Virus record (IMG/VR): IMGVR_UViG_3300017991_000003
Location: 32,001-96,000 of that record
Length of the DNA stretch: 64,000 bases
Source of the DNA: a virus
Direction: 5' to 3' (one strand)
Position 1 is the stretch's first letter, and every line of letters begins with the position of its first letter. Positions 1-63,814 of this stretch are shown here, in pieces. The notes below the pieces were generated by a model that had not been told where the DNA came from, made no database searches, and saw only the letters and a list, made by a program, of their open reading frames with translations. The position numbers and the translations under genes are program-made.

Positions 1-1
1 C

Positions 2-1063: not shown

Positions 1064-1158
1064 GACTGATCGCCTAGCCGGTAACCCCGGCTGATCCAAC
1101 GGGGGCTCCGGTAGAGGAAACTCTCCCGGGGCCCCTTTCACCTCCCATCCGATTCATC

Positions 1159-1830: not shown

Positions 1831-1840
1831 GAGGCCCTAG

Positions 1841-2883: not shown

Positions 2884-2887
2884 CCCA

Positions 2888-3319: not shown

Positions 3320-3322
3320 CGA

Positions 3323-4674: not shown

Positions 4675-4715
4675 TGCTGGTAGCCGACGCTCCTAACCGT
4701 AAGCTATAGCTGAAC

Positions 4716-5612: not shown

Positions 5613-6112
5613 ACACGAACGAGACGACCCAGAGCCTGGAGCTCGACCTCATGCAGAAGATCGCCACGATCATGCACGAGGACGACGCTGTGACGGTGGC
5701 TGATCATGACCCCTTCCTGTCCCTGAGCGATGGTCTCGGCGCCCACGTCGAGCCTGAGGAGGAGACCAAGGAAGCCGAGGCCCAAGAGGAGCTCGAGGAC
5801 GTGGAGGAGCCTAAGACGGCTCTGGCCAGTATGTCCATGGCTCAGGTCTTCCACGCGCCTGAGTTCCGCGAGGGCGTCCAAGAGGCCCTGGCGGCTCGCG
5901 CTGAGGAGATCAGCGAGGCTGTGACCAAGGTGGCGAAGACGAGCTGGTACTCGAAGCACGTCACCGGTCTCGGCAAGAAGTCGAAGACCATGCGGGAGCG
6001 TGCGAGCGACTGGGTCGGCAAGAACAAGGGCAAAGCCCTGGCTGGCGCTGCCGTCGGTGGCGGCATCGTCGGTGCCGGCGTCGCCAAGGGCTCGAAGGAT
6101 CCCTACGCCTGA
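5609..6112 (+). CDS. Hypothetical protein with acidic N-terminal half and C-terminal glycine zipper
   Basis: 167-aa ORF; ATGA overlap with upstream gene; C-terminal AGAAVGGGIVGAGVAKG. Confidence 0.55.
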   Translation: MNTNETTQSLELDLMQKIATIMHEDDAVTVADHDPFLSLSDGLGAHVEPEEETKEAEAQEELEDVEEPKTALASMSMAQVFHAPEFREGVQEALAARAEEISEAVTKVAKTSWYSKHVTGLGKKSKTMRERASDWVGKNKGKALAGAAVGGGIVGAGVAKGSKDPYA

Positions 6113-6125
6113 GACTAGGTGACCG

Positions 6126-6947
6126 GTGACTTCGCTAGGCGCTCCCGACTTCGGGGACCTGGATACCCAGGTCTTCAACCCGATGATCTACCCCAGGCGG
6201 GTGATCATCGAGGTACTTCGGAACGTCTTCGCGCAAGCCATCTTCACCGAGTTTCCCGGTCAGACGACCAACCCGTTCCTCTTCGTCACCGACGGAGATG
6301 GGGCGATCGACACGTCCAGCAAGCTGGTTATCGCCGACACGTTCAGCGACGAGCTCAGCCGCACGGACATGAGGCCCACGATCCTCGTGGGTCGAGGAGC
6401 CTTCCGGTTCAACGATCTAGCTGTCGACGGGCAGGGGTTTGGCGGGGCAGCGCCCAGCCTACTCCACGCCCCCGACGGCGAGACCGCGGTCAAGCACCTC
6501 GGTCTTGGTGGTTCGACCAAGAAGGTATTTCAGGACATGACCACCATGTCCATCGCCATCAACTGCTACGCACGTCGCAGCCAGGAGGCGGAGTCGTTGG
6601 CCTGGCACACAGCCGGGTTCATCCGCTTCTACGAGTACGAGCTCAAGCAAGGTTCGATGATCAGCAAGATCGAGAGCCCGCTTGTCGGCGACGTAGCCCC
6701 CGCCAACACCGACTCCCAGCACGATCTGTACCTGGTGCCCATTACACTGGAAGTGCACCAGTCCATCACCTGGGTCAAATCCAACGCAGCCACGGTTGCC
6801 CAGATCCTTGCCGGACTGAACCGCCCCTCGGGCAGTCAGTTCCCGCAGTACTACGGATCGCCAGCGACAGTGACCGCCAAGCCCGCGCCGATCTTCGACA
6901 GCCCCAGTCTGTTGGATCGCTGGTTCAACCTATCCCCGTCGCCCTGA
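6126..6947 (+). CDS. Hypothetical structural protein
   Basis: GTG start at 6126 preceded by AGGTGA at 6116-6121; 273 aa with ordinary composition; preferred over the Arg-rich overlapping frame 6119-6952. Confidence 0.6.
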   Translation: MTSLGAPDFGDLDTQVFNPMIYPRRVIIEVLRNVFAQAIFTEFPGQTTNPFLFVTDGDGAIDTSSKLVIADTFSDELSRTDMRPTILVGRGAFRFNDLAVDGQGFGGAAPSLLHAPDGETAVKHLGLGGSTKKVFQDMTTMSIAINCYARRSQEAESLAWHTAGFIRFYEYELKQGSMISKIESPLVGDVAPANTDSQHDLYLVPITLEVHQSITWVKSNAATVAQILAGLNRPSGSQFPQYYGSPATVTAKPAPIFDSPSLLDRWFNLSPSP

Positions 6948-14465: not shown

Positions 14466-14678
14466 CTAGTGCCGAATGGCCTGGAAACCGTGCCCGCAGG
14501 AGGCGCAGCAGTAGGACTCTCGGACATGGGTCCCGAGCCTAGCTGCCTCAGCCATCTTCTGTAGGTCTCGATCTCCCTGTTCCTCGAGCTGTCCGACATC
14601 CGTAGCCTCGCGGCTGGGGGCAGGCGTGCAGTCTGCGCTGTTGCATTCAGGGCAGGAAACGACTCCGTACTTCTCCAT
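14466..14678 (-). CDS. Small zinc-ribbon protein
   Basis: 70 aa with CPEC...CASC; GC3 about 70 percent by hand count; 2-nt gap to the resolvase gene. Confidence 0.5.
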   Translation of the reverse strand: MEKYGVVSCPECNSADCTPAPSREATDVGQLEEQGDRDLQKMAEAARLGTHVRESYCCASCGHGFQAIRH

Positions 14679-14680
14679 GT

Positions 14681-15208
14681 TCAGTCTTCGCTAGCAGCTT
14701 GTTGTCGACGGACCTCCGCAGATGCAGCGTAGCAGAGCACCATCGCATCCGAGATGTCCTCGTGGGCTTTGGGCACACCATCAGGATAGCCCAAATCGGC
14801 CAAGTCATCGGAAAACCGTTCATTCATTCGAGCCCGCGCCCCGTCCTTATCCTTGGCCTTGACGCGACTGCGGGCCGTCTTAGCTGTGATCAGGACCGGC
14901 TCGTAACCCGCTCGGGCGACCTCCGACATCACGGCCCCGATAGCCATGGCGACCTTGCCCATGGATGATAGGTTCCTGGCGTGCTTGTTGAACTTCAAGT
15001 CCTCGATGATCACGTGATCCGGGTTCCACTTGGCGAGCACCTCCCGCACCCGCTTCCCTAGCTGCCCGATCCGAGCAGCGAAGGTGTCCTTGGCGCGCAA
15101 CCGAAGGAGCTCGACATGCAGCATCTCCCACTCATCGCTCTCATCCATCCGCATCAAGGCCACCCCTGTTTTGAGGCTGCCGCAGTCGAATCCCATTACA
15201 ACGGTCAT
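14681..15208 (-). CDS. RuvC-like Holliday junction resolvase
   Basis: GFDCGSLKTG, HVIIEDL and DAMVL segments align with the RuvC catalytic motifs. Confidence 0.8.
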   Translation of the reverse strand: MTVVMGFDCGSLKTGVALMRMDESDEWEMLHVELLRLRAKDTFAARIGQLGKRVREVLAKWNPDHVIIEDLKFNKHARNLSSMGKVAMAIGAVMSEVARAGYEPVLITAKTARSRVKAKDKDGARARMNERFSDDLADLGYPDGVPKAHEDISDAMVLCYAASAEVRRQQAASED

Positions 15209-15609
15209 TCACGCCCCCCGGCTCCTCGGCCGCGGTTACGGATGGCCCGCTGAATGGCCTCTCGCCGGCTCGGCGGGATCTTGTGCAGGGGGAGCTCGAC
15301 CGGAGCTTCGGGGACCTTCTGGAAGGGCAGGTCACCGAAGATCTTGATCAGGGATCCAAGAACGTCTTGAGCATTCATCGTGTCGAGACGCCCATCGACC
15401 ATGGAGATCGGCAGCTCGAAGGTCATCGGCTGATCGAACGGGGTCAAGTAGTGCATTCGGAGCCCCATGTGCTCCTCATCACCTTCGGGGGCGATGTTCG
15501 TCACGTGACACCAGATGAACCAGCCGGTCACGTGGATACCGGAGGCGCCGAATCGAATGTCCTTGGAGCTGAAGGTCCAGAAAGGCTTAGGAGCGTTGGG
15601 GTTATCCAT
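15205..15609 (-). CDS. Hypothetical protein
   Basis: 134-aa ORF. Confidence 0.55.
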   Translation of the reverse strand: MDNPNAPKPFWTFSSKDIRFGASGIHVTGWFIWCHVTNIAPEGDEEHMGLRMHYLTPFDQPMTFELPISMVDGRLDTMNAQDVLGSLIKIFGDLPFQKVPEAPVELPLHKIPPSRREAIQRAIRNRGRGAGGRE

Positions 15610-15668
15610 AGCTAAAAGAGAGGAAGGGGCGAGGCCGGCACCCCGAAGGGCGCCGACCTCTGGGGGAC

Positions 15669-17387
15669 TCAGATGATCGCGTTCCAGTCGACGATGACAC
15701 CGGCCTCGTCGAGCAAGTCGTAGAACCAGGTCACGACGTGGACGTAAGCACCTAGCGGGTCCTTGGGGTGGCGCTTCTGGGCCTCCTCGCGCTTGGCACC
15801 GAACTCGTCGGTCTTGGCCAGCTTGTGCTTCTTGCAGGTCTGGCCGAGCAGGCTGAGCAGGGCACGCTGCTGAGTGGAGTTGAGCTTCGAGTAGTCAGGG
15901 CGCACGTTCTCGTCGAACGGCTCCTCTTCTTCCTCTTCTTCCTCTTCCTCCTCCTCGCCAGGCTCCTCCTCGTCCTCCTCCTCAAGATCGTCGAGCTCCT
16001 CATCGCTGGGCTCTTCTTCGTCGAGGTCCTCCTCGTCGAGCTCCTCGTCTTCTTCCTCGTCAGGCTCCTCCTCGTCGAGGTCCTCGTCTTCTTCCTCCTC
16101 CTCGTCGAGGTCCTCCTCGTCGTCTAGCTCCTCCTCGAGCTCTTCTTCTTCGAGCTCCTCGAGCTCCTCGAGCTCCTCCTCTTCTTCCTCCACATCAGGG
16201 GCGGAGGCAGCAACCGGAGCCTCCCGCTTGCCGATCATGTCGTCAGGCGGGATAGGGGTGTGAAGAGGGCCGGAGACAGCGATAGGGAACGCGCGGATCG
16301 TGTCCTCGGGAACGCCGAGCGTATCCGCGGCCTCCGCGAGGCTGGTGGCCAGCACGTAGCGCAGCGTGTCGGAGCCGTCCTCGTCTTGGCTGTAGGCCTG
16401 GTACACGGCATGGACCGACGGGAGCCCGATATGCTCTTGCATGTAGTTGGGGTCACCATCGGGCGCGACGAAGACAGCGCTGACGCCCGGGCAGCAACGC
16501 TCAGCCGCTTCTTTGAGGCGCATCAGGCCCACGGCCCGCCACGCATCGTCAGCGCCTTCGGTCAGGTGCGAGGACGCGGCCACGAGGGCCTCGATCATCA
16601 CATCACCGTCGGTCGGCCAGCGGTCAGAGTCGTCAGTACCGGACGCGGCCCGCTTGAGCAGCTCCTGGTAGGAGTAGTAGAGGTCCAGCTGCGGCTGGGT
16701 GAGTCGGAGCTTGAGCTCGCGGTACTTGGCCTCGCCGGGCTCGAGCCCCTCGTCCTCCTCGTCGTTCATGTCCTGGATCGCCTGCTGCACCCGGCGCTTG
16801 AGGTCTGCGGAGCGCAGCGCGTGCGGGTGACCCAGGGGCTCGCAGAAGGGCAGCCACTCGGAGATGTTGTCCTCGTGGATAGCGCCGGCGCGGACGCCCG
16901 GGCTCAGCTCGACAAGCCGGTCCCAGACCACGTGGCGCAGGACGGCGGGGTTCAGGCTCAGCGACAGCAGCATGGCCCACTGGCCTGCTAGCTGGTTGGC
17001 CTTGGCCGGGTTCATGTTGAGCCGCATGTCCGCGACCTGCTCGAAGCTCTCGGCGGCCGGCAGATCACCGACAGGAGCCGCGACCTCGATCCACGCACCT
17101 TCTCGCAGGTTGAACAGGTGGCAGGCCAGCTCAGCAGTCTGAGCGCCTCGGGCCTGCTGGAGCTCGACACACCGGTCCAGACGCTTGATCGCCGGGAGCT
17201 TGCCGGTGCCGGCGAAGGGGGCTCGCTGCCCCTGTAGGAGGTTCTGGGTTGCGTACTCGGCGCGCTCTTGAGCCTCTTCGAGGGCCACCAGTGCGGCGTT
17301 CTCGGAGCCCGGCTGCGGTTGGGTAGTCGGCGCAGCAGCCGCTTTCTTCTTCGTGGCCTTCTTGGCGGCCTTCTTTTTCTTAGCCAT
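15669..17387 (-). CDS. Hypothetical protein with Lys-rich N-terminal tail and long polyacidic tract
   Basis: Start taken at MAKKKKAAKKATKKK (ATG 17385-17387); about 110 residues of nearly pure Glu/Asp/Leu. Confidence 0.65.
   Translation of the reverse strand: MAKKKKAAKKATKKKAAAAPTTQPQPGSENAALVALEEAQERAEYATQNLLQGQRAPFAGTGKLPAIKRLDRCVELQQARGAQTAELACHLFNLREGAWIEVAAPVGDLPAAESFEQVADMRLNMNPAKANQLAGQWAMLLSLSLNPAVLRHVVWDRLVELSPGVRAGAIHEDNISEWLPFCEPLGHPHALRSADLKRRVQQAIQDMNDEEDEGLEPGEAKYRELKLRLTQPQLDLYYSYQELLKRAASGTDDSDRWPTDGDVMIEALVAASSHLTEGADDAWRAVGLMRLKEAAERCCPGVSAVFVAPDGDPNYMQEHIGLPSVHAVYQAYSQDEDGSDTLRYVLATSLAEAADTLGVPEDTIRAFPIAVSGPLHTPIPPDDMIGKREAPVAASAPDVEEEEEELEELEELEEEELEEELDDEEDLDEEEEEDEDLDEEEPDEEEDEELDEEDLDEEEPSDEELDDLEEEDEEEPGEEEEEEEEEEEEPFDENVRPDYSKLNSTQQRALLSLLGQTCKKHKLAKTDEFGAKREEAQKRHPKDPLGAYVHVVTWFYDLLDEAGVIVDWNAII
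15921..16192. repeat. Low-complexity GAG/GAA/GAC codon tract encoding the polyacidic region
   Basis: Plus strand is CTC/TTC/GTC-rich with internal direct repeats. Confidence 0.8.
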
Positions 17388-41632: not shown

Positions 41633-44600
41633 ATGGCCGATAACGTCCAGCTCTACGACGCGCATCTAAACCTCTGGACCCTCAGGACATCCGAGGACAC
41701 AGAAATCCACACGCCGCACCACGTGTCGCGGCTGGCGGACGGGGAGGGGCGCTTCTACAGGCCCGGACGGCCGGTACCTGTGTCGATCTACGGGACGGAC
41801 GGGGTCGAGATCAACATCGAGGCCGGCTCGATCGCTGTCAGCACAGACCACAACGAGGACTCAGTAGCGGTCTTCGGGTCGTCGACCCCTGAGGGGCTGG
41901 AAAACTTCAGGTCGCTGGTGGTGGACCCCCAGGGGCACCTCCAGACCACAGTGGTCTCAGCGCCTGGGGTGGAGCCCGTCGGGGACTCGCCCGACGCGGG
42001 GCAGCTAGGTACGGTCATCCTAGGGGTCCAGGTAGGGGCAACGCCAGCTAGTCAGGTCACGGGGGACGGTCGGACAGCCCCTCTGATCATGGACGATCGG
42101 GGCCGGCTCTTCGTCTCTTTCGGCAACTCCGTCGCGGTTCTGCCCTTCACGCAAAAGGGTGACCTACTTACTTATGACGGATCTGACGAAGTTGTCCTGG
42201 GCCCGACGGTCGACGACGCGCTTCTGACACTGGACTCCAGTACCAGTACCGGCCTCAGGTGGGTGAGCCCGGTGACGAGCTCCCCCAGCCCCGTGCTCTT
42301 CCTACGCGAGGATCTAACATGGGCTCTGCCCTCAGCAGGGGCACCGGGCGGGGCTGCGGGCGGAGACTTGGGCGGGACCTATCCGAACCCGTCTGTGGTC
42401 GCTATCCAAGGGATTTCCACTTCTGCGGCTGCGCCAACGCCTGGGCAGACCTGGGTGTACACCGGCAGCGCTTGGAGTCCGGGAAGCCCGGCTACCGGAG
42501 CTGCTACGGACCACGGGACGCTCACAGGGCTCCTCGACGATGATCACACCCAGTACATCCTGGCTGATGGCTCTCGAGACTTCTCAGGCTCAATCGGCAT
42601 GGGTGGGAATGAGATCACGGATGTGGCCTCTCCTATCCTCGTATCCTGGGCAGCTAACAAGGGTTACGTTGATGATCAGATCACCGCGTCCGTCATCACG
42701 GACCACGGCGGGCTAGGCGGGCTCGGGGATGACGACCATACCCAGTACGTGTTGGTGGCTGGCACTCGTGCGTTCACGGGCGATCAGAGCCTAGGCGGTA
42801 ACAAGATCACGAGTCTGGGGTCCCCGACCACCGCAAGCGATGGAGCCAACAAAGGTTACGTCGACGCTAACGTGGTCACGGACCACGGCGCTTTGATCGG
42901 GCTGGGGGATGATGACCACACCCAGTACATCCTGACTGCGGGGACTCGAGCCTTCAGTGGTAACCAGAGCCTAGGCGGCAACCTGATCACAAGCCTAGGC
43001 TCGCCTACTACCGCAAGTGGTGGTGCTAACAAGGGTTACGTTGACGCGGCTATCACGTCGGCAGTGATCACGGATCACGGAGGGCTTGGCGGCCTGACGG
43101 ACGACGACCATACGCAGTACGTCCTGGTCGCAGGTACTCGAGCGTTCACAGGCAGCCAGAGCCTGGGCGGTAACCTGATCACGTCGCTAGGGTCTCCTAC
43201 TGTTGTAAGTGACGCAGCTAACAAAGGTTACGTTGATGCGCAGATCCCGACGAGCCTACCCCCTAGCGGGGCTGCTAGTGGTGATCTAGGCGGCACGTAC
43301 CCCGGGCCTACTGTGGTGGCCATTCAAGGCACCGGAGTCAGTGCAAACGCTCCAAGTACTGGTGATGGCCTGGTTTACACCGGAGCGGCTTGGAGTCCGA
43401 CCGCGGTCTATCGACCTGGCGGGACGGATGTGGCTGTGGCAGACGGGGGCACCGGGGCGTCGGACGCGTCCACGGCGCGTAGCAATCTAGGCCTGACCAT
43501 CGGGCTCGACGTCCAAGCCCACTCCGCAGTTCTTGACGCTACAACGGCCAGTTACACAACCGCGGCCGAGGGTAAGCTCTCGGGCATCGAGACCAACGCT
43601 GATGTCACGGACACAGCCAACGTGACGGCCGCTGGCGCTGTCATGATCGGCACAACGGCCGCGGCCGGGGACCTGAGCGGTACCTACCCGAGCCCGACGG
43701 TCGTGGCCATTCAGGGGACTGGCGTCTCGAGCACTGCGCCGAGCTCTGGGCAGGCCCTGATCTACTCCGGCACTGTCTGGAGCCCCAGCACGCTCCCCAG
43801 CGGGGTGACGGACCACGGGGCCCTGACCGGACTCGGAGACGACGACCATACCCAGTACATCCTGGTTGGTGGCACTCGCGCCTTCACGGGCAACCAGTCG
43901 ATGGGCGGCAACCTGCTCACGTCGTTGGGGAGCCCGGTGGCGGTAACAGACGCAGCTAACAAGGGTTACGTCAATGCCTCGATCACCGCGGCCGTCGTCA
44001 CGGACCACGGGGCCCTTGACGGGCTGGCCGATGACGACCACACCCAGTACCACAACGACGCTCGGGCGCTGACGTGGTTGGGGACGCGCGACACAGATGA
44101 CCTGGACCCGAGCGCCACCCGTCTCTACATGAGCCCGGGTGAGCGCACCAAGCTCGCCGGGATCGAAGCGCTTGCCGATGTGACCGATGCGGCCAACGTG
44201 GCCGCGGCCGGCGCTGTCATGGTCGGTGACGCTGCGGGCGGTGATCTTAGCGGTACCTACGCAAACCCGTCCGTGGTCGCGATCCAGGGTACGGGTTGCT
44301 CTTCAGCAACGCCGACCGCCGGCCAGACCTGGGTCTACTCCGGGTCCCAGTGGAGTCCTGGCTCACCCGCTGTTGGTGGCGCGTCAGATCACGGAACCCT
44401 GACCGGGCTGGGCGACGACGACCACACTCAGTACATTCTTGTTGACGGTACACGGGCCTTCACAGGCGCAGTTAGTCTCGGTGGGAGCCAGATCAACAGC
44501 CTGGCTTCGCCCACGCTCCCAGCAGATGCAGCCAACAAGGGCTACGTCGACGACCAGATCCCGACGAGTCTACCCCCTAGCGGGGCAGCGTCTGGCGACC

Positions 44601-45409
44601 TTGGTGGGACCTACCCGGGCCCAGACGTGGTGGCTATCCAGGGGACCGCGGTCAACTCGGCGACGCCGACGACGGGTGAGGCCCTGCTCTACTCGGGAAC
44701 GCAGTGGAGCCCTGGGCCGATCAACTTCCTCGAGCTCAACGACGTCGATCCCACAGGCCTGACCAACCTCGACCTGTTCTACTACAGCTCGGCGTCGGGG
44801 ACTATCGTCCGGTCTAGCGGCCTCACGACCTACGCGTTCTACACGCACAGCGGATCGCACATCCACGGACAGTACGACGCAATCGACGGGGATCAGCTAT
44901 CGATCACCCAGCCGGGCGTCAACTACTCCCCGACGACCGACGCGACATACGGCACCAACACGGCGCACCTCGCTGCCCATCTGCGGGGTATCGGTCTGGT
45001 CCTGGAGGATGTCAGTCCCGCGGTCACCAAGCTCGCCGGGATCGAGGCGGGCGCTGAAGCCAACGACGTTCAGACCAAGAGCATCACGATCGAGGCGCCG
45101 ACCACGACGGAAGACATCTCGTTCTTCTACGCTCCGGTAGCGATGACGATCTCAGAGATGGTCACGGTCCTGGTGGGCTCTCCTACGCCGTCCCTAGCGT
45201 GGACGCTCCGGCACAGCACCGACAGGAGCGCTGTGGGCAACGAGGTCATCACCGGGGGATCCACGGCGAATAGTACGACGACCGGTAACGTGCTGACCTC
45301 CTTCAACGACGCAACGGTCCCAGCCAACTCCTTCCTGTGGGTTGAAACGGCGAGCCCCAGCACGAACGTGACGAGCTTCCAGCTCAGCGTTGAGTACACC
45401 GACGACTGA
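41633..45409 (+). CDS. Tail fibre / receptor-binding protein with internal repeats
   Basis: 1258 aa; seven copies of a unit containing TDHGxLxGLxDDDHTQY...GANKGYVD and five copies of a second unit DLxGTYPxPxVVAIQGT; AGGGGAGGA ribosome-binding site before ATG. Confidence 0.7.
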   Translation: MADNVQLYDAHLNLWTLRTSEDTEIHTPHHVSRLADGEGRFYRPGRPVPVSIYGTDGVEINIEAGSIAVSTDHNEDSVAVFGSSTPEGLENFRSLVVDPQGHLQTTVVSAPGVEPVGDSPDAGQLGTVILGVQVGATPASQVTGDGRTAPLIMDDRGRLFVSFGNSVAVLPFTQKGDLLTYDGSDEVVLGPTVDDALLTLDSSTSTGLRWVSPVTSSPSPVLFLREDLTWALPSAGAPGGAAGGDLGGTYPNPSVVAIQGISTSAAAPTPGQTWVYTGSAWSPGSPATGAATDHGTLTGLLDDDHTQYILADGSRDFSGSIGMGGNEITDVASPILVSWAANKGYVDDQITASVITDHGGLGGLGDDDHTQYVLVAGTRAFTGDQSLGGNKITSLGSPTTASDGANKGYVDANVVTDHGALIGLGDDDHTQYILTAGTRAFSGNQSLGGNLITSLGSPTTASGGANKGYVDAAITSAVITDHGGLGGLTDDDHTQYVLVAGTRAFTGSQSLGGNLITSLGSPTVVSDAANKGYVDAQIPTSLPPSGAASGDLGGTYPGPTVVAIQGTGVSANAPSTGDGLVYTGAAWSPTAVYRPGGTDVAVADGGTGASDASTARSNLGLTIGLDVQAHSAVLDATTASYTTAAEGKLSGIETNADVTDTANVTAAGAVMIGTTAAAGDLSGTYPSPTVVAIQGTGVSSTAPSSGQALIYSGTVWSPSTLPSGVTDHGALTGLGDDDHTQYILVGGTRAFTGNQSMGGNLLTSLGSPVAVTDAANKGYVNASITAAVVTDHGALDGLADDDHTQYHNDARALTWLGTRDTDDLDPSATRLYMSPGERTKLAGIEALADVTDAANVAAAGAVMVGDAAGGDLSGTYANPSVVAIQGTGCSSATPTAGQTWVYSGSQWSPGSPAVGGASDHGTLTGLGDDDHTQYILVDGTRAFTGAVSLGGSQINSLASPTLPADAANKGYVDDQIPTSLPPSGAASGDLGGTYPGPDVVAIQGTAVNSATPTTGEALLYSGTQWSPGPINFLELNDVDPTGLTNLDLFYYSSASGTIVRSSGLTTYAFYTHSGSHIHGQYDAIDGDQLSITQPGVNYSPTTDATYGTNTAHLAAHLRGIGLVLEDVSPAVTKLAGIEAGAEANDVQTKSITIEAPTTTEDISFFYAPVAMTISEMVTVLVGSPTPSLAWTLRHSTDRSAVGNEVITGGSTANSTTTGNVLTSFNDATVPANSFLWVETASPSTNVTSFQLSVEYTDD
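42507..43250 (+). repeat. Four tandem in-frame copies of a ~186-bp (62-aa) repeat in the fibre gene
   Basis: DDDHTQY codon strings recur at about 42537, 42731, 42911 and 43101. Confidence 0.85.
43801..44560 (+). repeat. Three further copies of the same 62-aa repeat interleaved with AIQGT-motif units
   Basis: DDDHTQY codon strings at about 43845, 44033 and 44413. Confidence 0.8.
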
Positions 45410-56900: not shown

Positions 56901-57127
56901 TAAAAAGCTCCTTGGTGAATCAACCGGAGCAGAGCTCCGGAGGTGAAAGGTGCCCCACCCGCCGAGAGGCGAGTGGGGCGGTTGCCAGGATGCACACGAA
57001 CTACTGGAGTGGTGGACCTGAGCTGAGCCGGAGTATGGCACCGGATCGAGCCGGATTCAGTGACTGCGTATAGCTCGTTGGGTTTGTCTACCTCGTGGAT
57101 GAGCTCGGAGTCACGACTCGAGCGGAG

Positions 57128-57289
57128 TCGCCTGCCTCGAGCTCATTGTTGCCATCATCTCGTCTGGTTGATGAGATGGCGGCGGCTCCTCCTCTCCTGT
57201 TATCCTGCGCTTACAGTATTCTCGGTGCCCGAGCTCGACCCATCTCGTCAACCTGACGCGATGATGGCAACAATGAGCTCGAGGCAGGC
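57128..57289. repeat. 31-bp perfect inverted repeat pair separated by 100 nt
   Basis: 57128-57158 is the exact reverse complement of 57259-57289, verified base by base. Confidence 0.9.
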
Positions 57290-57438
57290 GCCGCAGCGAG
57301 AGGCGCCGTGGCTCAGCCTCGTGGTGGGCAAACCCACGAGTTATTCGCAGACACTGAAGCCGGCCCGGTTGACATGCTCTGGCTCAGCTCAGGGTCTACC
57401 CGTAGGTGCAAGTGTGGCCGAGGTTGCTGTTGCGCTAT

Positions 57439-57457
57439 CTGCGGCGATGCGCCGCAG
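57439..57457 (+). repeat. Hairpin motif copy 1 (CTGCGGCG-ATG-CGCCGCAG)
   Basis: 8-bp stem, 3-nt loop; shares core GGCGATGCGCCGC with two other copies. Confidence 0.8.
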
Positions 57458-57785
57458 GACCCTCAAGTCAAGAGGGAATAGCTCTTCGTGTGCGGGGATT
57501 CCAAGGCAAGAGCCTGGATGGGCGCGCAGAGCATGATCCCGGTCGTGGAGGCGTGCCCGAGCTTTGTACGCGACCCGGTTCGGGTCGAGGATAAAGCGAA
57601 GGACCAGCACGCTGTAACGATCCGTGGATTATGCTCCGCGCTGTCCCAGCCAGCGCTTCGTTGGTAGTGGGAGGCGCCTCCGCTAGGAGGCGACGTCCTC
57701 GAGTTGCGCTACTGAAGCGACCACACATGCTGGCATGTGTAGCTTCAGGTGCGCAGTGCTCGAGGCCCACGACCAGTCGTACAGT

Positions 57786-57802
57786 GGCGGCGATGCGCCG
57801 CC
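57786..57802 (+). repeat. Hairpin motif copy 2 (GGCGGCG-ATG-CGCCGCC)
   Basis: 7-bp stem, 3-nt loop; same core. Confidence 0.8.
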
Positions 57803-58040
57803 TGAAGACGTTGTGGATTAGGCCTCCGGTAGGCCCGTTCCAGTCTTTCTACTCCCTTGGAAAGGTAGTCACCTCTTGCGAGGCTGGCTGGCTACCTTGG
57901 TATCGGCGCTCGTAGAGACTACCCGGTCACACGCCCGCCGGAGGCGGGCTTGTGGACGCGTGGTCTCAACGTAATGTGTCACAGGAGACAGCTCGAGGCG
58001 CAGCTCGAGCGGGCCTCCGGCCACAGTTTCTATCACTTGA

Positions 58041-58053
58041 CGGCGATGCGCCG
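58041..58053 (+). repeat. Hairpin motif copy 3 (CGGCG-ATG-CGCCG)
   Basis: 5-bp stem, 3-nt loop; same core. Confidence 0.75.
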
Positions 58054-58265
58054 CCGCGGAAGTCAGATGGGCTAGCTAGACCACTTCTTTCCTTGCTCCG
58101 CCGAAGATGTACCTGTTGGCAGCCCTGGTACTGGGCTTTTGGCTATGAAGAACGGATCATCGGGGCCAACTACCCTCCTGCTCTTCGTGCCTGTTGGTAC
58201 CGGCCTTTGGCCGGCAGCCGAGCCTGCTCCGGATTATGTGGAGCAGACTCGGTTCACTTGGTGCG

Positions 58266-58733
58266 CTAGCCGCGCTCCTTGACGGGGACCTTCATGATGA
58301 GGACGTCGCCCTCCTTGAGGGTCATCCCGTCGGTCACCTCCTGGCCGCCGATGTGCGGCTTCGACCCCTCGGGGGTGCCGAAGCGGCGAGCGTACTCGGT
58401 CCGCGCGTCGGCGACCGAGGTGCCGGCGGCGACGTTGAGGCGGCCGGGCTCGCCCAGACCGTCGGTGGCCGCGGCGGTGACCGTGGCGACCGGACCCGCC
58501 TGCGGGGTCTCCTGGGTCGTCGGCGCCGTCGTGGCGGTGGGAGCGGTGCGCGTCACGGCGACGGCCACCTCGGTGTCCGTGGGCAGACCCGTGGTCTGGT
58601 CCCACTTGGTCGGATCCGAGTGGTCGACCTCGTAGAGCACGGGGTTGCCGGCCGCGTCGTTCGCGGGGGAGTCGGCGTAGCGGATGCGACGGTTGAGGGT
58701 GTCGAACGCGGGGCGCTTGATGTTTCCGGTCAT
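58266..58733 (-). CDS. Beta-grasp (ThiS/MoaD/ubiquitin-like) domain protein with N-terminal extension
   Basis: C-terminal ~60 aa (GRLNVAAGTSVADARTEYARRFG...TLKEGDVLIMKVPVKERG) matches the ThiS/MoaD pattern by eye; ends in a single Gly; no clear ribosome-binding site. Confidence 0.5.
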   Translation of the reverse strand: MTGNIKRPAFDTLNRRIRYADSPANDAAGNPVLYEVDHSDPTKWDQTTGLPTDTEVAVAVTRTAPTATTAPTTQETPQAGPVATVTAAATDGLGEPGRLNVAAGTSVADARTEYARRFGTPEGSKPHIGGQEVTDGMTLKEGDVLIMKVPVKERG

Positions 58734-58756: not shown

Positions 58757-59491
58757 TCAGGTGAGTTGGAGGGAGTGCTGCGTCTGCGGCGCGGCTTTCC
58801 CACCGAGCACGTCGACCACGATGGTGTTGAAGCTGGGCTTCATCGGGTCGTCGATCGTCAGGACCTGGGCGAACCAGGTCTGCAACATGGCCTGGGCGAC
58901 CGCTTGGTTCGCCAGAGCCAGTTGCGGCTGCGTCTCGTACTCCTGGGTGCAGTCCAGCTGATCGGGAAACTCGTTCCCAGGAGTCTCATGACGCATCTCG
59001 GGGTTCCGTTCGGTGAGCGACGCGCAGACGTCCTCGCTGTTGATGCGGCGCCAGAGCATGGCCTGGCCGCTGTCGAGGTCGTTGCCGCCGTCCACCCACG
59101 TGAACTCGTCGAGCTTGTCGAGCTGCTCCTCGAGGAAGCAGCGGGTCTTGTTGTTGTCCACGCAGCCGAACAGCGTGACGCCCTCGACCAACCACTCACG
59201 GTGGTGGTTCAGGAGCCGATCGCTCAGGTACATGGAGATCACCCGGACGTCCAGGCCCGGGAAGGTGTCTCGCAGGGTTCGGGCCATGATCTCGGCTTTG
59301 TTCTGGCCGATGGCCGCGGCGCCGTGCTGGCGCGCGAGGTTGTGGTCCTCGACCTCGTCGCCGTCGATGATGAAGAGGGTCGGATTCTGGATCCGATCCC
59401 CCACCATCTCAGGCGGGTGGGCGAGAAGACGAGCGAGCGGCTCGGCTAGGTGGTAGCCGATGCCGCCCGCTCCGAGGATGGCGTAGATCAT
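58757..59491 (-). CDS. E1-like adenylyltransferase (ThiF/MoeB family)
   Basis: Start at MIYAILGAGGIG (Rossmann GxGxxG); IIDGDEVEDHNLARQ matches the E1 Arg-finger; GCVDNNKTR matches the conserved DN..R segment. Confidence 0.7.
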   Translation of the reverse strand: MIYAILGAGGIGYHLAEPLARLLAHPPEMVGDRIQNPTLFIIDGDEVEDHNLARQHGAAAIGQNKAEIMARTLRDTFPGLDVRVISMYLSDRLLNHHREWLVEGVTLFGCVDNNKTRCFLEEQLDKLDEFTWVDGGNDLDSGQAMLWRRINSEDVCASLTERNPEMRHETPGNEFPDQLDCTQEYETQPQLALANQAVAQAMLQTWFAQVLTIDDPMKPSFNTIVVDVLGGKAAPQTQHSLQLT

Positions 59492-59495
59492 GAGG

Positions 59496-61394
59496 TCAGG
59501 GGTAGATGGGGAGGGTGGCTTCTGTTTCGGACTTGTTGCAGAAGGCGATCTCCTCGAGGAGGACATCGTCTTCCATGTCGTCGGGGTCCTCGAGGACTCC
59601 GTCCATCTCGAGCACCAGTCGATCCATCTGATCGAGGATCTCTTGGTAGTCCTTGCGGTAGGGAATGCCGGCGTTCTGGGCCGCCTTGCGGACGACAAAG
59701 TAGGTCAGCCGGAACCACTCGAGCAGGACGCCGTCGGAGTCCTCTCGCGAGAATGCCTCGACGTAGCTCAGGTTGGTCTCGATCACGGTCTCGATCACGG
59801 TGTCGATCGACGTCTCGGGGAACACAGTTTTCACCGTCGGGTCGGCGTAGACGTATTTCGAGAGCTTGTCGATCCGGGCATCCAGTGCGATCGACTTGAA
59901 TAGCCGGTCGAGAAGGTCGTCGATGCGATTCATCACCTCGTCGATGACGTCTCGAACCAGCATGCTGTAGAGGGTCTGACGACTCTCGGATGCGCTGTTC
60001 TGCGCTTCTTCGACGATCTCTTCGATCGTGGGGGCGTTATCGAACCACTCACTGGTCGAGGCGTGGTTCATGAGCAGATGCAGGGCTAGGGCCGTAGCGT
60101 TGCTCGACGTCAGACTGTCCTTGAACGAGGTGCAGTACGCCCACACGGCTCGTGGGAAGGTCGTTTGCTGACCCTCCGCCTTCTTGATCAGCTGAAGGGG
60201 GTAGTGCGCTTGCGGTGAGATCACCATGCCGTAGAAGCCGGTGTGCATCCGCTGGATGCGGAACTTCTTATCAGCGACCAGCGAAGGGCCAGAGGCTGTC
60301 TTGCTGACAGGTACCAGTGAGGTAGTCGTCTTCTTCGTCGTCTGGCCAAGGCCACCCTGCGCCCCCGTACCCCCAGTCTTGCCGCCAGGAGTCGAAGGCG
60401 TACCCGCTTTGCCGCCGGTCCACTTTTTCGAGCCATAGCCGCCATACCTGCTGGTCTTGGCTTTCTTCTCCGCCTCCTTGATGGCCTCGCTGGCCAACTT
60501 GAACGTGGTAAGACAACGGGCGGCCTCGCCCATCCTGTCCTTCCAACGCCCCAGGCTTTCCATCGACCCACAGAAGGTCATCACAGTGCTCGTGTCGACG
60601 TCCTCGAGCTTGTCGACGCTGAGACCGACGGCGAGCTCGTCGGGATCGACCCCGGCCTTCAGCATGGCTTCGCACAGTCCGGGGTGGGCGACCCGGTTCA
60701 GCCACAGCTGAATCAGATCCAGGCCGCCCTCCACGAAAGGGATGTCGAACAACTCCTCGAGACCGGTCGCGTGGCGGATGCCCTGCGCCTTCTCGTTGCG
60801 GTAGCCGGGGAGGGCGGTGACGAACGACGGGCACACCGAGAAGGGCGGCTTGTCCACGTTCCCGAAGGTGATGTGGAAGCCCGTCTGGTTGAGCTCGTTG
60901 GCGTCGTCGGTCGAGCTGTGGTAGGCTCCACCAGCGCCGTGACTGTGCGCGGTGCCGACGCAGATGAACTCGACAAGCTCTCCATCCTCGCAGATGGGGC
61001 AAGCGTTGCCGGCTTCGAGCTCGATCGAGCCGATGCGACAGGTCGTGCAGAAGCTCTTGACGTTGGGATCGTACTTCACGTGCCCCGCGGAGGCGGTGTA
61101 CCACGGCGGACTGACGAGGGTGTAGGCGTCGTCGACCGGCCCTCGGTGGAAGAGCACGAAGGCCTCGGTCTTCCACAGGCGGTAGACCTCGGCGAAGTAG
61201 CGGTAGACGAACATCGTCTCCGCCATGGAGATCTTGGGCCAGTTGGTGAGGTCCAGGTCACGCTGGATCTGGTCGGTTTCACCGAGGTCCTCGGCCCGGG
61301 CGGGAACGAAGGCCTGAGCCCAGGCGGCCCCGCCTGGGCCGATGGTCTTCAGCACGTGGGCTTGGTTGCCCTTGTAGTAGATGTCGGTGGTCAT
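59496..61394 (-). CDS. JAB/JAMM metallopeptidase-domain protein with zinc ribbon and large C-terminal domain
   Basis: Exact JAMM signature HSHGAGGAYHSSTDD preceded by CTTC...CPIC; GC3-rich codons checked across the gene; start at internal Met giving ATGA overlap with upstream gene. Confidence 0.7.
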   Translation of the reverse strand: MTTDIYYKGNQAHVLKTIGPGGAAWAQAFVPARAEDLGETDQIQRDLDLTNWPKISMAETMFVYRYFAEVYRLWKTEAFVLFHRGPVDDAYTLVSPPWYTASAGHVKYDPNVKSFCTTCRIGSIELEAGNACPICEDGELVEFICVGTAHSHGAGGAYHSSTDDANELNQTGFHITFGNVDKPPFSVCPSFVTALPGYRNEKAQGIRHATGLEELFDIPFVEGGLDLIQLWLNRVAHPGLCEAMLKAGVDPDELAVGLSVDKLEDVDTSTVMTFCGSMESLGRWKDRMGEAARCLTTFKLASEAIKEAEKKAKTSRYGGYGSKKWTGGKAGTPSTPGGKTGGTGAQGGLGQTTKKTTTSLVPVSKTASGPSLVADKKFRIQRMHTGFYGMVISPQAHYPLQLIKKAEGQQTTFPRAVWAYCTSFKDSLTSSNATALALHLLMNHASTSEWFDNAPTIEEIVEEAQNSASESRQTLYSMLVRDVIDEVMNRIDDLLDRLFKSIALDARIDKLSKYVYADPTVKTVFPETSIDTVIETVIETNLSYVEAFSREDSDGVLLEWFRLTYFVVRKAAQNAGIPYRKDYQEILDQMDRLVLEMDGVLEDPDDMEDDVLLEEIAFCNKSETEATLPIYP

Positions 61395-61816
61395 GTGGTG
61401 ATCAGGGGTGGGTGGAATCGACGTAGGACGGTCAAGACCGCCTGGGTGTCTTCGTTGATGTCTTGCTCGGCTAGTAGGTGATCGAGCCGGCGCATCCAAT
61501 CACGTAGGGTCGTGAGCTGCTCGGGGCCCATGCTCGCCGGAGGGTCGACGACAGGACGTCGGTCGCTCTCGTCTCGGATCAAGTTGAAGCGGATGTTGTT
61601 GATCCTTCCACCGTCTAGCGCAACTGGATAGGTGCGTTGGAAGATCTGACCAAGAGCCTCGATCATCTCTCGAGTAAGACCCGTCCCCTCAAGATCGAGA
61701 AGGTGCGGTCGGTTCTCGAGGATCCGAGATAGAAGCTCCTCGCGTCTCCGGATAATGGCCTGGTGATCATTGTGTCGATCACGCGCGCCTTGCACGGTGT
61801 CCAGAATGGTGGTCAT
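61391..61816 (-). CDS. Hypothetical protein (operon member)
   Basis: 141 aa; ATGA overlaps at both ends (61813-61816 and 61391-61394). Confidence 0.55.
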   Translation of the reverse strand: MTTILDTVQGARDRHNDHQAIIRRREELLSRILENRPHLLDLEGTGLTREMIEALGQIFQRTYPVALDGGRINNIRFNLIRDESDRRPVVDPPASMGPEQLTTLRDWMRRLDHLLAEQDINEDTQAVLTVLRRFHPPLITT

Positions 61817-62655
61817 CGGACCACCTCTCGCCACTTCTCGGCCGCCGTACCGAGCTCCCGGCCCAGTACGATCTCATCGACGTCCGTCTGCCAGGTCATG
61901 ATGCGATCCTCGGTCCAGCGCTGCCATCGACAGAACTGCCAGAGCATGACAGTGTTCATGTTCAGGCCCAGATCACGCCGCCTGTCGTAGTCGGTGTAGT
62001 CACCTTCGGGGAGTTGCTCGAAGTACGGGACCTCTCGAAGCGCTTCGGGAACCTCAAACCCCTCAGGGAGCGGCCCGCTGAAAGGTGGCATGGTCAGGGA
62101 GTGCTCGTAGTGCGCGTTGTAGCCGGACTCGTTGATGAGCTTGAGGACCATCTCCGGGATCGACTGGAGCCCGTTGTACCGGTACTGGCGGAACACAGCA
62201 CCCGTGCACATGCCTCCCGTATCTTGCTGGTTCGGTAGGAATGATTTGTACAGAACCGGGGTGTACCCCGCCTCCAGATGCGGCTGCTGCTTGGTGAAGA
62301 AGCAGCGGGCATCGGAGAGGCGCCCGTCGTAGATCGAGATGATGAAGACGCGCGCAGGCATGGCGACCAGGAATCGAAGACCCTCCGGCCAGCCGCGGTT
62401 CTCGCGGACGTCGATGGAGATCCTCTCAGCCCGCGGAGGCACGACTGCCATGAAGTGCTCGTTGTGGGCATCCTTGGTGTGTGCCAGGATGTTTACGTAG
62501 GGGTGGTACGGAAAGAGGGCGCCAGCGCGCCGGCCTCGTTCCTCGAGGGCGGTCACGACGTCTTCTTCCCGCGTGATGCGGTTGACGTGAACCGTTTGAT
62601 GGATCACGTGACCATCGACGATGACGAGTCGATCGTGGGTTTCGAAGTTGGTCAT
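61813..62655 (-). CDS. Hypothetical protein (operon member, candidate effector)
   Basis: 280 aa; ATGA overlap with the RT stop at 62652-62655. Confidence 0.6.
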   Translation of the reverse strand: MTNFETHDRLVIVDGHVIHQTVHVNRITREEDVVTALEERGRRAGALFPYHPYVNILAHTKDAHNEHFMAVVPPRAERISIDVRENRGWPEGLRFLVAMPARVFIISIYDGRLSDARCFFTKQQPHLEAGYTPVLYKSFLPNQQDTGGMCTGAVFRQYRYNGLQSIPEMVLKLINESGYNAHYEHSLTMPPFSGPLPEGFEVPEALREVPYFEQLPEGDYTDYDRRRDLGLNMNTVMLWQFCRWQRWTEDRIMTWQTDVDEIVLGRELGTAAEKWREVVR

Positions 62656-63755
62656 GGGAGGTACGCGCGTGTCTCGGCGCTGTAGTTGGTGGGGGTGTTG
62701 TGGTGCACGTCTTGCGCGACACGCAGTTGTAGTTGGAGCGAGGCTCCTTGATCAGGGTTGATGAAGTTGACGTGGTTGACGAGGCCGGCGAGGTGGTCAA
62801 AGTTCACCGGCACAGGGCCTCGGTGCGTCAGCTCTCCCCCACGGGGACAGCGGCCGAAGTGCGCGTCGCAGATGATCTTGTGCAGCCGGGCGCGAAGCGC
62901 GCGCCGTCGAGGCCTGGGAGCGCTTAGCTTCTCGTTGACGACGACGCCGCAGACCGTCATGCGACTGCCGATGGAGCGGAATCGGATCTTTTCGGGGGCG
63001 ACCTTGTAGCCCAGCTTTTTCAGGAACCCGATGACGGGGTACTGGAACTGGTACAGCTTTCTGTAATCCGCCGTGAAGGTCATGTCGTCGCTATAGCGGG
63101 TGTACGCGATCGGCAGGAGTCTGATCTGAGTCTGCGTCTTTCGCCGGCGCTCTCCGTGGTTGTCGACCCACCGCATCGTGGGGTTGGTCCGCCAGGACTC
63201 GATCAGCTTCAGGATGCCGAAGTCCACCTGAGCCCCTGCCAGGTTGGAGAGGAAGGGGGACGTGGGGGCTCCTTGTGGTAGGCCACCATCCAAGAAGCAG
63301 GCGCGTTTGACTCTGTCAAGGAAGAGCCTGTCGGCACGTGACATCGGTTGCATGTACCCCCTGGTCAGGAAGTACTCCAGCTGCTCGAGGACGACGTGGG
63401 GAGACACGGACGGGAAGAAGTCCCGCAGATCGATGTCCAGCTTGTACCGGTGACCTACATGCGGGGCGGCGTTGGTGTGGATACCACGCTTGCGGACGTA
63501 GGCATGAGCTGCTGGGGAGGCCCCGATCCCGAGCGCTTTGAGCTCGCTGAGGATGAGCTTTTGAGCAGCCATTAGCTCCGGGCAAGGGATCTGGAGCTTT
63601 CGCATCTTCTGACGTGTCCGACCGTTCGAAAGCGTCTCGAGTACCGGGACTTCTCGACCATCCCGGGTACGCCTGGTCTTGGGGATTCGTGCGAATCGGT
63701 AGTGCTCAGCTTGAGCGGTGTCCGTCAGGACATTGAATGATGGGTAGCCAGCCAT
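62652..63755 (-). CDS. Reverse transcriptase, retron-type
   Basis: TNAAPH (NAxxH), YKLDIDLRDFFPSV, GLPQGAPTSPFLSNL (QGxxxSP), YTRYSDDMTF (YxDD), RMTVCGVVVN (VTG-like); GAGGG ribosome-binding site 6 nt before ATG. Confidence 0.8.
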   Translation of the reverse strand: MAGYPSFNVLTDTAQAEHYRFARIPKTRRTRDGREVPVLETLSNGRTRQKMRKLQIPCPELMAAQKLILSELKALGIGASPAAHAYVRKRGIHTNAAPHVGHRYKLDIDLRDFFPSVSPHVVLEQLEYFLTRGYMQPMSRADRLFLDRVKRACFLDGGLPQGAPTSPFLSNLAGAQVDFGILKLIESWRTNPTMRWVDNHGERRRKTQTQIRLLPIAYTRYSDDMTFTADYRKLYQFQYPVIGFLKKLGYKVAPEKIRFRSIGSRMTVCGVVVNEKLSAPRPRRRALRARLHKIICDAHFGRCPRGGELTHRGPVPVNFDHLAGLVNHVNFINPDQGASLQLQLRVAQDVHHNTPTNYSAETRAYLP

Positions 63756-63814
63756 GATCTACCCTCAGATGACGGCGCAGATTGCGCTCAAGGCAAGAAG
63801 TAGCATGTGCTTCA

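Follow-up and report, generated by a model that had tools for sequence, protein, structure and literature searches.

The window, by which we mean the whole 64,000-nucleotide stretch of viral DNA analysed (positions 32,001 to 96,000 of IMG/VR record IMGVR_UViG_3300017991_000003), carries on its minus strand a block of six genes coding, in this order, for a 367-residue retron-type reverse transcriptase (RT; positions 62652-63755), a 280-residue E2-like protein (61813-62655), a 141-residue small helical protein (61391-61816), a 632-residue JAMM/MPN+ metalloprotease starting with MTTDIYY (59496-61394), a 244-residue ThiF-type E1 (58757-59491) and a 155-residue ubiquitin-like protein (Ubl; 58266-58733). 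The arrangement is consistent with one operon; the genes overlap or abut, several through ATGA overlaps such as the one by which the start of the JAMM gene overlaps the stop of the upstream gene for the 141-residue protein. Gene order was identical in every related contig, and the RT was present in all nine of those reaching far enough upstream, so that the RT is tied to the Ubl enzymes by synteny; across these syntenic contigs, the identity of the JAMM protein falls to about 24%.

The boundaries of the JAMM gene are correct, the identical gene having been called on the public contig, and its product displays the MPN fold that defines JAMM/MPN+ metalloproteases, in keeping with the assignment made in the earlier note from the sequence alone. 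A catalytic glutamate, E77, is found within TEAF (61166-61164, minus strand), and the HxHx7Sx2D motif, HSHGAGGAYHSSTDD, spans residues 150-164 (60947-60906, minus strand), within the interval to which that note had assigned an exact JAMM signature. A four-cysteine zinc ribbon (C116-T-T-C119 and C132-P-I-C135; 61049-60990, minus strand), which had likewise been placed next to the active site, is inserted after the catalytic Glu and directly before the HxH strand. E77, the four ribbon cysteines, H150, H152, S160 and D163 are invariant in an alignment of all 17 family members; since the overall identity among these members goes down to 23%, the motif cannot be attributed to chance. The window protein scored 24.4 bits against Pfam PF14464 (Prok-JAB), for which the gathering score is 25 (E 2.8e-5), and precomputed matches to this family exist for 14 of the 17 relatives. 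The ribbon occupies the same position as the Ins-1 insert of AMSH and Rpn11, and we infer that it helps to keep the tail of the Ubl within the active site.

Past the JAMM domain, the earlier note had described a Gly/Lys-rich linker and an uncharacterised C-terminal domain of some 300 residues. The linker is real, its Gly/Lys stretch (GGYGSKK...GGKTGG, residues 318-342) lying inside a predicted disordered segment rich in Gly, Lys, Thr and Pro (residues about 316-415; 60150-60449, minus strand; pLDDT below 50 and no secondary structure), whose length but not sequence is kept across the JAMM family. A helical region matching nothing known does follow the linker, but what had been taken for one domain consists of three parts, namely a small alpha/beta region (residues about 225-315), the linker, and a helical bundle of roughly 200 residues (residues about 417-620; 59535-60146, minus strand). 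Comparison of the bundle with Pfam and the PDB returned nothing related beyond designed helical bundles and coiled coils. An alignment of 11 C-terminal domains contained neither an invariant column nor a conserved Cys, making it unlikely that the bundle is an E2 or that conjugating activity resides in this part of the protein, as had been suggested. Its identification as a fused form of the alpha-helical protein of '6d' cassettes was rejected at hhalign probabilities below 1% against the accessory proteins of related plasmid cassettes. With neither invariant residues nor any detectable relative, the bundle is probably a non-catalytic adaptor or targeting domain rather than an enzyme.

No canonical E2 had been evident in the operon on first reading, and the 280-residue protein had been offered as the other possible seat of a conjugating activity. 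The former statement has to be revised and the latter appears right: judged from profile comparisons, the missing E2 is this neighbouring protein, a divergent member of the Prok-E2_D family. It contains the motif F-L-P141-N142-x7-C150-x-G, in which the spacing equals that of the HPN...C of E2 enzymes (C150 codon at 62208-62206, minus strand), and P100, N142 and C150 are invariant in the 50 relatives collected by profile search. Twelve of these 50 match Pfam Prok-E2_D (PF14460) and no other family, and the family profile aligned in hhalign with a probability of 95.8% to the Prok-E2_D protein of a Chlorohelix plasmid and of 81.8% to the E2_D protein of a B. thuringiensis plasmid. It is the invariance of these residues, the Prok-E2_D matches and the 95.8% alignment that argue for the 280-residue protein as the conjugating enzyme. 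The window protein itself gave no direct match in Pfam, PADLOC, PHROG or NCBIfam scans, a homologue search with the single sequence returned only the query, and a profile search of the PDB with the family found no solved E2. An AlphaFold2 prediction built on an 11-sequence alignment reached a pLDDT of 36 and is unusable as a model; only the order of the secondary structure elements (beta-meander, PN...C loop, helices) would fit a UBC fold.

The E1 consists of a single ThiF domain (Pfam ThiF, 5e-14) with intact nucleotide-binding motifs; it carries GAGGxG, DGDxxExxNxxR, CVDN and an invariant FPDxxxC181. Its best NCBIfam match, PRTRC_ThiF (5.8e-15), stayed below the cut-off (55.3 vs 144.75 bits), and in PADLOC it matched only the E1 part of Cap2 models. 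The closest E1s outside the family are found in cassettes of plasmids and Bacillus jumbo phages made up of a hypothetical protein, a Prok-E2_D protein, a JAB protein and a ThiF protein. The Ubl comprises an N-terminal extension of roughly 85 residues and a domain of roughly 70 residues ending in K-E-R-G, which on sub-threshold matches is probably of beta-grasp fold: ThiS or ThiS-like Pfam families were weakly matched by three of eight orthologues, and the top PDB profile matches were SAMP2 and PF1061, with E values of about 0.1. The C-terminal K-x-R-G is invariant, and in 5/10 orthologues the Gly is followed by a tail of one or two residues, as in the endings ...KERGNA and ...KRRGL. Neither the Ubl nor the 141-residue protein was matched when scanned directly against Pfam, PADLOC, PHROG and NCBIfam. 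The latter has no Cys, is poorly conserved and belongs to no matched family, but keeps a constant position in every cassette at lengths of 82-162 residues in the relatives.

The most unusual feature, the RT that opens the operon and accompanies the cassette in all relatives, had gone without mention in the earlier note. It harbors the motifs NAAPH, YSDD and VCG, corresponding to the NAxxH, YxDD and VTG-like motifs of the retron clade. Its best match among PADLOC retron RT models was at 2.4e-44, and it matched the NCBIfam retron St85 family at 1.8e-38, below the cut-off, as it was below every curated type-specific cut-off. The PDB yielded 13 matches, every one an RT and 12 named as retron RTs, Ec86 among them at 2.7e-20. 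Just downstream of the operon lies a candidate retron-like non-coding RNA (ncRNA; 57639-57902, minus strand), in which a closing stem, AGCCAG / CUGGCU, reminiscent of the a1/a2 stem, encloses small 5' hairpins, a conserved hairpin, GGCGGCGCAUCGCCGCC, and, at about 57639-57780, a long 3' hairpin. Conserved blocks of this candidate are present in three loci (L001, L002 and L012), and in these three phages it adopts one retron-like fold topology, with z scores of -5.5 to -8.2; it was seen in one clade only, for a total of three independent sequences. A pattern scan of metagenomes retrieved one true relative, identical to L002, the remaining hits being chance matches in GC-rich DNA. The 5' end of the candidate, GGUAGCCAGCCA, is the exact complement of the start-codon region of the RT gene; in the downstream gap of other clades, complementarity to the RT start did not exceed 8 nt. 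No Rfam family was found around the cassette. Between the cassette and the replication genes, a giant imperfect hairpin of about 390 nt (57017-57393, no strand assigned; z -14) is the sole inverted repeat of the window with well-separated arms, and in locus L007 its place is taken by an unrelated sequence that folds alike (z -21.5). Because it is clear in only two of seven loci, this hairpin was not counted as a proven part of the system.

The family was found only in uncultivated large phages, on contigs of 120-190 kb. It was absent from the 185,579 bacterial and archaeal species genomes searched, and GenBank phages showed neither DNA similarity to the cassette nor, by tblastn, a match to the JAMM domain. 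The block always sits between the same divergently transcribed genes, which are large and adjoin it, and the replication genes, with which it is co-oriented; none of the neighbouring genes has a PHROG tail annotation. That this position is fixed while protein identity between the phages has dropped to about 25% makes the block look like a core function inherited vertically rather than like a mobile defence island.

Among the described systems closest to the phage block are the '6d' operons of Iyer, Burroughs and Aravind and the PRTRC cassettes, themselves probably of the same kind, which combine a Prok-E2_D protein, a JAB protein, a ThiF protein and a small Ubl. All four kinds are present here, the order E2, JAB, E1 is shared, and the phage cassette has the features by which '6d' is recognised, namely an adjacent JAB, a rhodanese-less ThiF E1 and a small Ubl with a C-terminal Gly. 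Such cassettes are carried by mobile elements and phages, and unannotated '6d'-like copies were found in Bacillus phage vB_BauM_KLEB27-3 (gp194-197) and on a 235-kb plasmid of B. thuringiensis; no experimental characterisation of them was found in the searched literature. The best sequence models in NCBIfam are PRTRC_A for the JAMM protein, at a score far below its cut-off (19.6 vs 101.8 bits), and PRTRC_ThiF for the E1. A ParB-related protein is typical of PRTRC cassettes, and a JAB-N domain with conserved Arg and Trp of '6d' ones; none of the six phage proteins gave a ParB match in Pfam or NCBIfam. The plasmid JABs lack the zinc ribbon, neither the long C-terminal extension of the phage JAMM protein nor the 141-residue protein has a counterpart in '6d'/PRTRC cassettes, and the gene preceding E2 encodes a large hypothetical protein there and a retron RT here.

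The bacterial anti-phage system Bil (BilABCD) includes a deubiquitinase, BilC. BilA carries a tail after its Gly that is trimmed by BilC (PMC10557695), which resembles the short tails of half of the phage Ubl orthologues, but BilC, at about 160 residues, is devoid of the zinc ribbon, linker and helical domain that the phage protein possesses. Bil further relies on a multidomain E1 (IAD, AAD and CYS) and a CEHH-type E2, as opposed to a single-domain E1 and a Prok-E2_D-like E2, and has no RT; within the cassette, PADLOC matched the E1 and the RT only, and no Bil model matched the E2. Type II CBASS comprises a CD-NTase, a fused E1-E2 (Cap2) and the JAB protein Cap3, whereas the phage block has no nucleotidyltransferase and encodes its E1 and E2 separately; there the polymerase itself is conjugated, while here the Ubl is free and the polymerase is a reverse transcriptase. 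Archaeal SAMPylation (SAMP, UbaA, JAMM1) proceeds without an E2, in contrast to the conserved E2-like protein of the phages. Retron RTs such as those of Ec86 and Ec78 are the closest to the phage RT in all libraries, and their structured RNA has an a1/a2 stem resembled by that of the nearby candidate, but retron ncRNAs lie upstream and the candidate lies downstream of the operon. A Ubl-conjugation set as the partner of a retron-type RT was found neither in the searched literature nor in reference genomes. The phage block is encoded as a syntenic core of large phages.

We consider it probable that the JAMM protein is a zinc-dependent isopeptidase, acting both as maturase and as deconjugase, of a phage-encoded Ubl conjugation system, a reading for which the features of the E2, E1 and Ubl, the gene order and the overlapping genes all count. 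The enzymatic steps and the target that we infer would be as follows. The newly made Ubl would end in an exposed C-terminal Gly or, as in half of the related phages, would bear one or two further residues as a cap, which the JAMM protease would remove where present. The E1 would then adenylate the Gly and probably form a thioester on Cys181, from which the Ubl would be passed to Cys150 of the E2-like protein and on to an amino group of a phage or host target, a modification that the JAMM protease could also undo. The helical bundle, on its flexible linker of roughly 100 residues, may be a fast-evolving adaptor through which the protease is directed to its substrate or to a partner. In type II CBASS a nucleotidyltransferase is under the control of E1-E2 and JAB enzymes; by analogy, the Ubl system may control the RT or what the RT produces, or the two may work side by side.

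The retron-type RT with its NAxxH, YSDD and VCG motifs, and the adjoining candidate ncRNA of retron-like topology, could alternatively mean that the phage carries the block as a new retron type directed against competing phages, by superinfection exclusion or abortive infection, with E1, E2, JAMM and Ubl as effector and JAMM as its off-switch. Known retrons do combine their RT and ncRNA with effectors of various kinds. Ubl enzymes also act in immunity in Bil and type II CBASS (PMC10557695). We nonetheless hold this to be unlikely, as the fixed position of the block at about 25% identity points to a vertically inherited core function, the bacterial and archaeal genomes searched do not contain it, no type-specific retron model reaches its cut-off, and the ncRNA is a candidate restricted to one clade. 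It is less likely still, and in our judgement improbable, that the JAMM protease serves counter-defence, stripping host Ubl from phage proteins tagged as in Bil-type tail modification or cutting CD-NTase conjugates as Cap3 does, with the other genes as accessories; a complete cognate set of E1, E2 and Ubl co-evolves with it in every genome, the tails of the cognate Ubl require a cognate maturase, and PADLOC gave no match to Cap3-type models.

The weak Ubl matches, the best of which are to ThiS and SAMP-type carriers, and the short, single-domain, ThiF/MoeB-like E1 would also suit sulfur transfer, in which the E1 would adenylate a ThiS/MoaD-like carrier to yield a thiocarboxylate for thio-modification of nucleosides or cofactors and the JAMM protein would, like Mec+ on CysO, free the carrier's C-terminus. 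This is very improbable given that neither a rhodanese nor a cysteine desulfurase or sulfurtransferase was detected in the cassette (Pfam, NCBIfam), that the phages have kept an E2-like protein whose Cys is invariant, and that the nearest E1 models are of the PRTRC and Cap2 types rather than biosynthetic ThiF or MoeB. JAB-Ubl pairs have a precedent within tail modules (Iyer et al. 2006; PMC1779556), and the large divergently transcribed genes adjoining the block might be structural, so that the protease could be imagined to process a Ubl-containing assembly factor in the manner of lambda gpK and gpI. However, gpK is a JAB fused to NlpC/P60 within a tail cluster, whereas the phage JAMM protein has no NlpC/P60 match, and the block includes E1, E2 and RT, adjoins genes without a tail annotation and is co-oriented with replication genes; of all the readings considered, we give this one the least credence.

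Descriptions of bacterial Ubl conjugation, such as those of Bil and type II CBASS, have until now concerned host defence, and the effectors described for retron RTs are of kinds such as nucleases, ATPases and proteases. With respect to the Ubl conjugation system proposed here, we tentatively suggest that the RT and the conjugation enzymes may form one machine in this lineage of large phages, either as a new retron type with an E1-E2-JAMM-Ubl partner or through tagging or control of the RT, or of its RNA-DNA product, by the Ubl enzymes. Since it is fixed, vertically inherited and next to replication genes, the block may serve the phage's own replication or host take-over rather than defence. 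The JAMM protein offers the easiest entry point, with its clear active site and a natural putative substrate in the Ubl precursors bearing tails of one or two residues, and its tethered C-terminal domain should reveal its partner. Should the coupling prove functional, it would link ubiquitin-like tagging to reverse transcription for the first time, would represent a viral, as opposed to cellular, use of Ubl chemistry, and would provide a handle on the uncharacterised '6d'/PRTRC-like cassettes of many plasmids, conjugative elements and Bacillus jumbo phages.

The reading frame at 61394..59496 of the window (minus strand), in which the earlier note had recognized a JAMM protein with a zinc ribbon, corresponded to an exact gene encoding 632 residues, identical in the public gene call, the ATG start codon of which overlaps the stop codon of the upstream gene. 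Its product harbors the sequence TEAF at residues 76-79 (including E77), the zinc-ribbon Cys pairs C116-x2-C119 and C132-x2-C135, and the segment HSHGAGGAYHSSTDD at residues 150-164. Only 17 relatives, all metagenomic and with identities down to 23 %, were retrieved from 5.8 billion proteins, and none was found among GenBank phages or across 185,579 bacterial and archaeal species, each represented by a single genome. In line with the original observation, E77, the four Cys residues, H150, H152, S160 and D163 were invariant in all 17. The Pfam Prok-JAB score of the protein (24.4 bits) fell just short of the cut-off of 25, and matches to Sst2/AMSH (11.0), BRCC36, PfJAMM1, AfJAMM, Rpn11, CSN5 and Cap3 supported an MPN fold; the possibility that the protein lacks this fold was therefore dismissed. 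The zinc ribbon follows the catalytic Glu and precedes the HxH strand. The Ins-1 insert of AMSH and Rpn11 contacts the ubiquitin tail, and it is the position of this insert that the ribbon would, by analogy, occupy. The ribbon is specific to the phage JAMM family, and the related JABs encoded by plasmids of Chlorohelix and B. thuringiensis do not have it.

The JAMM gene is the fourth of six minus-strand genes, all overlapping or abutting, which encode a retron-type reverse transcriptase (RT; 63755..62652), a 280-residue protein (62655..61813), a 141-residue helical protein (61816..61391), the JAMM protein, a ThiF-type E1 (59491..58757) and a 155-residue ubiquitin-like protein (Ubl) ending in KERG (58733..58266). 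Gene order was identical in every locus sampled from contigs spanning the whole family (numbered loci L002-L009, L012, L016, L017 and L024), and the RT was present in 9/9 distinct cassettes whose contig reached far enough upstream, among them the most divergent cassette, whose JAMM protein is 414 residues long. The flanks were likewise constant, with divergently transcribed genes on one side and replication genes (a replication-initiator-like protein and DnaB) on the other, which points to the vertical inheritance of a core module.

While the earlier reading of a JAMM/MPN protein stood, its companion claim that no E2 was evident in the operon did not. The 280-residue protein carries the motif F-L-P141-N142-Q-Q-D-T-G-G-M-C150-T-G, with the spacing of the HPN...C signature of E2 enzymes, and the P, N, C and G of this motif did not vary in an initial alignment of seven cassettes. 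A HMMER search of 1.84 billion representative proteins with the family profile (E up to 1e-3) yielded 50 proteins, all of which retained P100, N142 and C150; 12 of them matched Pfam Prok-E2_D (best 7e-9) and no other Pfam family was matched. When compared using hhalign to a bona fide Prok-E2_D protein of the Chlorohelix plasmid (Pfam 2.7e-25), the 50-sequence profile reached a probability of 95.8 % over 164 columns, with superposition of LPNxxxxGxxCxG and SxFNxD, and a seven-sequence profile reached 81.8 % against the E2_D of the B. thuringiensis plasmid. The AlphaFold model of the 280-residue protein had a pLDDT of 36, too low to confirm its fold. Based on these sequence comparisons, the E2 of the phage cassette is best explained as this neighboring protein. 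The suggestion that conjugating activity might instead reside in the C-terminal domain of the JAMM protein found no such backing. The ~200 C-terminal residues can be assigned with good confidence to a helical bundle, joined to the rest of the protein by a Gly/Lys/Thr/Pro-rich linker whose length, but not sequence, is kept across the family. The alignment of 11 such domains contained no invariant column; searches of Pfam and PDB returned no meaningful match, and comparison with the accessory proteins encoded by the closest bacterial cassettes showed no relationship. Because conserved polar or Cys residues are absent, an enzymatic role for the domain, as an E2 or otherwise, is very unlikely, and we read it as a rapidly evolving, non-catalytic adaptor on a flexible tether.

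The E1 matched Pfam ThiF (5e-14), and its alignment retains GAGGxG, DGDxxExxNxxR and CVDN, together with an invariant FPDxxxC whose Cys (C181) is a candidate for the thioester Cys. The best NCBIfam models for the E1 and JAMM proteins were PRTRC_ThiF (5.8e-15, under the cut-off) and PRTRC_A, respectively. The last ~75 residues of Ubl yielded weak ThiS or ThiS-like matches in 3/8 orthologues, and its top PDB profile matches were SAMP2 and PF1061 (E ~0.1), resemblances that are suggestive only. An N-terminal extension of ~85 residues (58509-58733, minus strand), with the conserved start NxxRPxxxxxxxRIxYxxSP...WxQxTGLP, precedes this region in about half of the clades; elsewhere it is absent and Ubl is 77-89 residues long. 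The C-terminus is invariantly K-x-R-G, at the Gly of which five of ten orthologues stop, the other five having N, NA, L or V beyond it. Such tails resemble that of BilA in the Bil system, where BilC trims the extra C-terminal residues ahead of adenylation (PMC10557695), so that tailed Ubl would, by analogy, provide the JAMM protein with a concrete first substrate.

The RT matched PADLOC retron RT models (up to 2.4e-44) and the NCBIfam retron St85 family (1.8e-38, under the cut-off). Its 13 PDB matches were exclusively RTs, of which 12 are named as retron RTs, and alignment with the best, Ec86 (2.7e-20), paired NAAPH with NATPH, YTRYSDD with YTRYADD and VCG with VTG. A 13-codon mini-ORF (MLLLALSAICAVI; 63765-63806, minus strand) lies between the upstream gene for a 200-residue membrane protein and the RT, stopping 9 nt ahead of the RT start. 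It is probably translated, since it is kept with synonymous codon changes in three relatives (L002, L012 and L024), and perhaps encodes a leader peptide whose translation is coupled to that of the RT.

Every relative displays a gap of 0.6-1.4 kb after the Ubl gene. Within this gap, the window phage shares a conserved block with L002 and L012, its two nearest relatives. The block starts with GGTAGCCAGCC(A), which is exactly the reverse complement of ATGGCTGGCTACC, the region of the RT start codon (RT start at 63743-63753). This RT start sequence is also retained in L024, a fourth member with a contig that stops before the gap. The window contains three copies of the hairpin GGCGGCGCATCGCCGYC, all within the gap (57440-57456, 57786-57802 and 58039-58055), against 0.17 copies expected. 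Approximately 260-340 nt of the block (57639-57902, minus strand, in the window) fold alike in 3/3 phages (z -5.5 to -8.2), with a closing stem AGCCAG/CUGGCU, small 5' hairpins and a long 3' hairpin, a layout which, on three independent sequences, is that of retron msr-msd RNA. The block could be an msr-msd RNA; it had no match in Rfam and no equivalent in other clades, and it may alternatively act as an antisense RNA that regulates translation of the RT. Nearer the replication genes, just upstream of their block, lies a giant imperfect hairpin of ~390 nt (57017-57393; RNAfold z -14), the only inverted repeat of the window with well-separated arms. A distant relative (L007, 11470-11880) has at the same position an equivalent hairpin of ~400 nt in unrelated AT-rich sequence (z -21.5). 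Possible identities of this hairpin are a replication origin, a MITE-like element and an RT template. tRNA genes (Ala-TGC, Gly-TCC) occupy the post-Ubl gap of two relatives (L004, 11534-11687; L007, 11006-11079), and none is found in that of the window phage.

The window (GC ~62 %) comes from a large tailed phage that had not been described before, and encodes a family-A DNA polymerase (PHROG 17, E 7e-99), a DnaB-like helicase (PHROG scan, 2e-40), a UvsX-like recombinase, a further helicase and a tail-fibre-like protein. A 1258-residue protein (41633-45409, plus strand) gave many tail-fibre and head-decoration PHROG matches (E down to 9e-23) confined to short repeated stretches, and is probably a repeat-containing fibre protein. 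Two metagenomic contigs (174,660 and 193,018 bp) share this sequence, as does a viral contig in IMG/VR. Reference collections cover the lineage very poorly: GenBank phages showed no DNA similarity to the cassette, most genes neighboring it had no PHROG family match, and 0/10 flanking proteins (1-6800 and 14495-15831 of the window phage's own locus L001, partly past the window end), including ones of 684 and >1100 residues, matched PHROG.

The nearest E1s outside the family reside in cassettes encoding a large hypothetical protein, Prok-E2_D, JAB and ThiF, which are found on the Chlorohelix plasmid and, as unannotated copies, on a 235-kb B. thuringiensis plasmid (L010, NZ_CP013278.1 123872-136378) and in Bacillus jumbo phages, among them vB_BauM_KLEB27-3 (L015, 161902-174426; gp194-197, one annotated 'PRTRC_A domain'). 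These fit operon class 6d of Iyer, Burroughs and Aravind, 2006 (PMC1779556), and we infer that the TIGRFAM 'PRTRC' cassettes are of the same kind. No experimental study of 6d/PRTRC-type cassettes was found in the literature, and several such operon families are described as uncharacterised in the Bil paper (PMC10557695). The phage cassette is a divergent member of this kind, to which it adds the zinc ribbon, the JAMM linker and helical domain, and the RT. The JAMM protein would most plausibly serve a phage-borne Ubl conjugation system of 6d/PRTRC-like type as its maturase and deconjugase, with the 280-residue protein as the E2. Full-text literature searches for retrons combined with ubiquitin-like, ThiF or JAB proteins did not find such a combination. 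An RNase-H-like RVT_3 protein, along with an OB-fold protein, directly follows the B. thuringiensis cassette and is a second link of Ubl cassettes of this type to RNA-DNA hybrid enzymes; what is new is that, in one lineage of large uncultivated phages, such a cassette is strictly linked to a retron-type RT.
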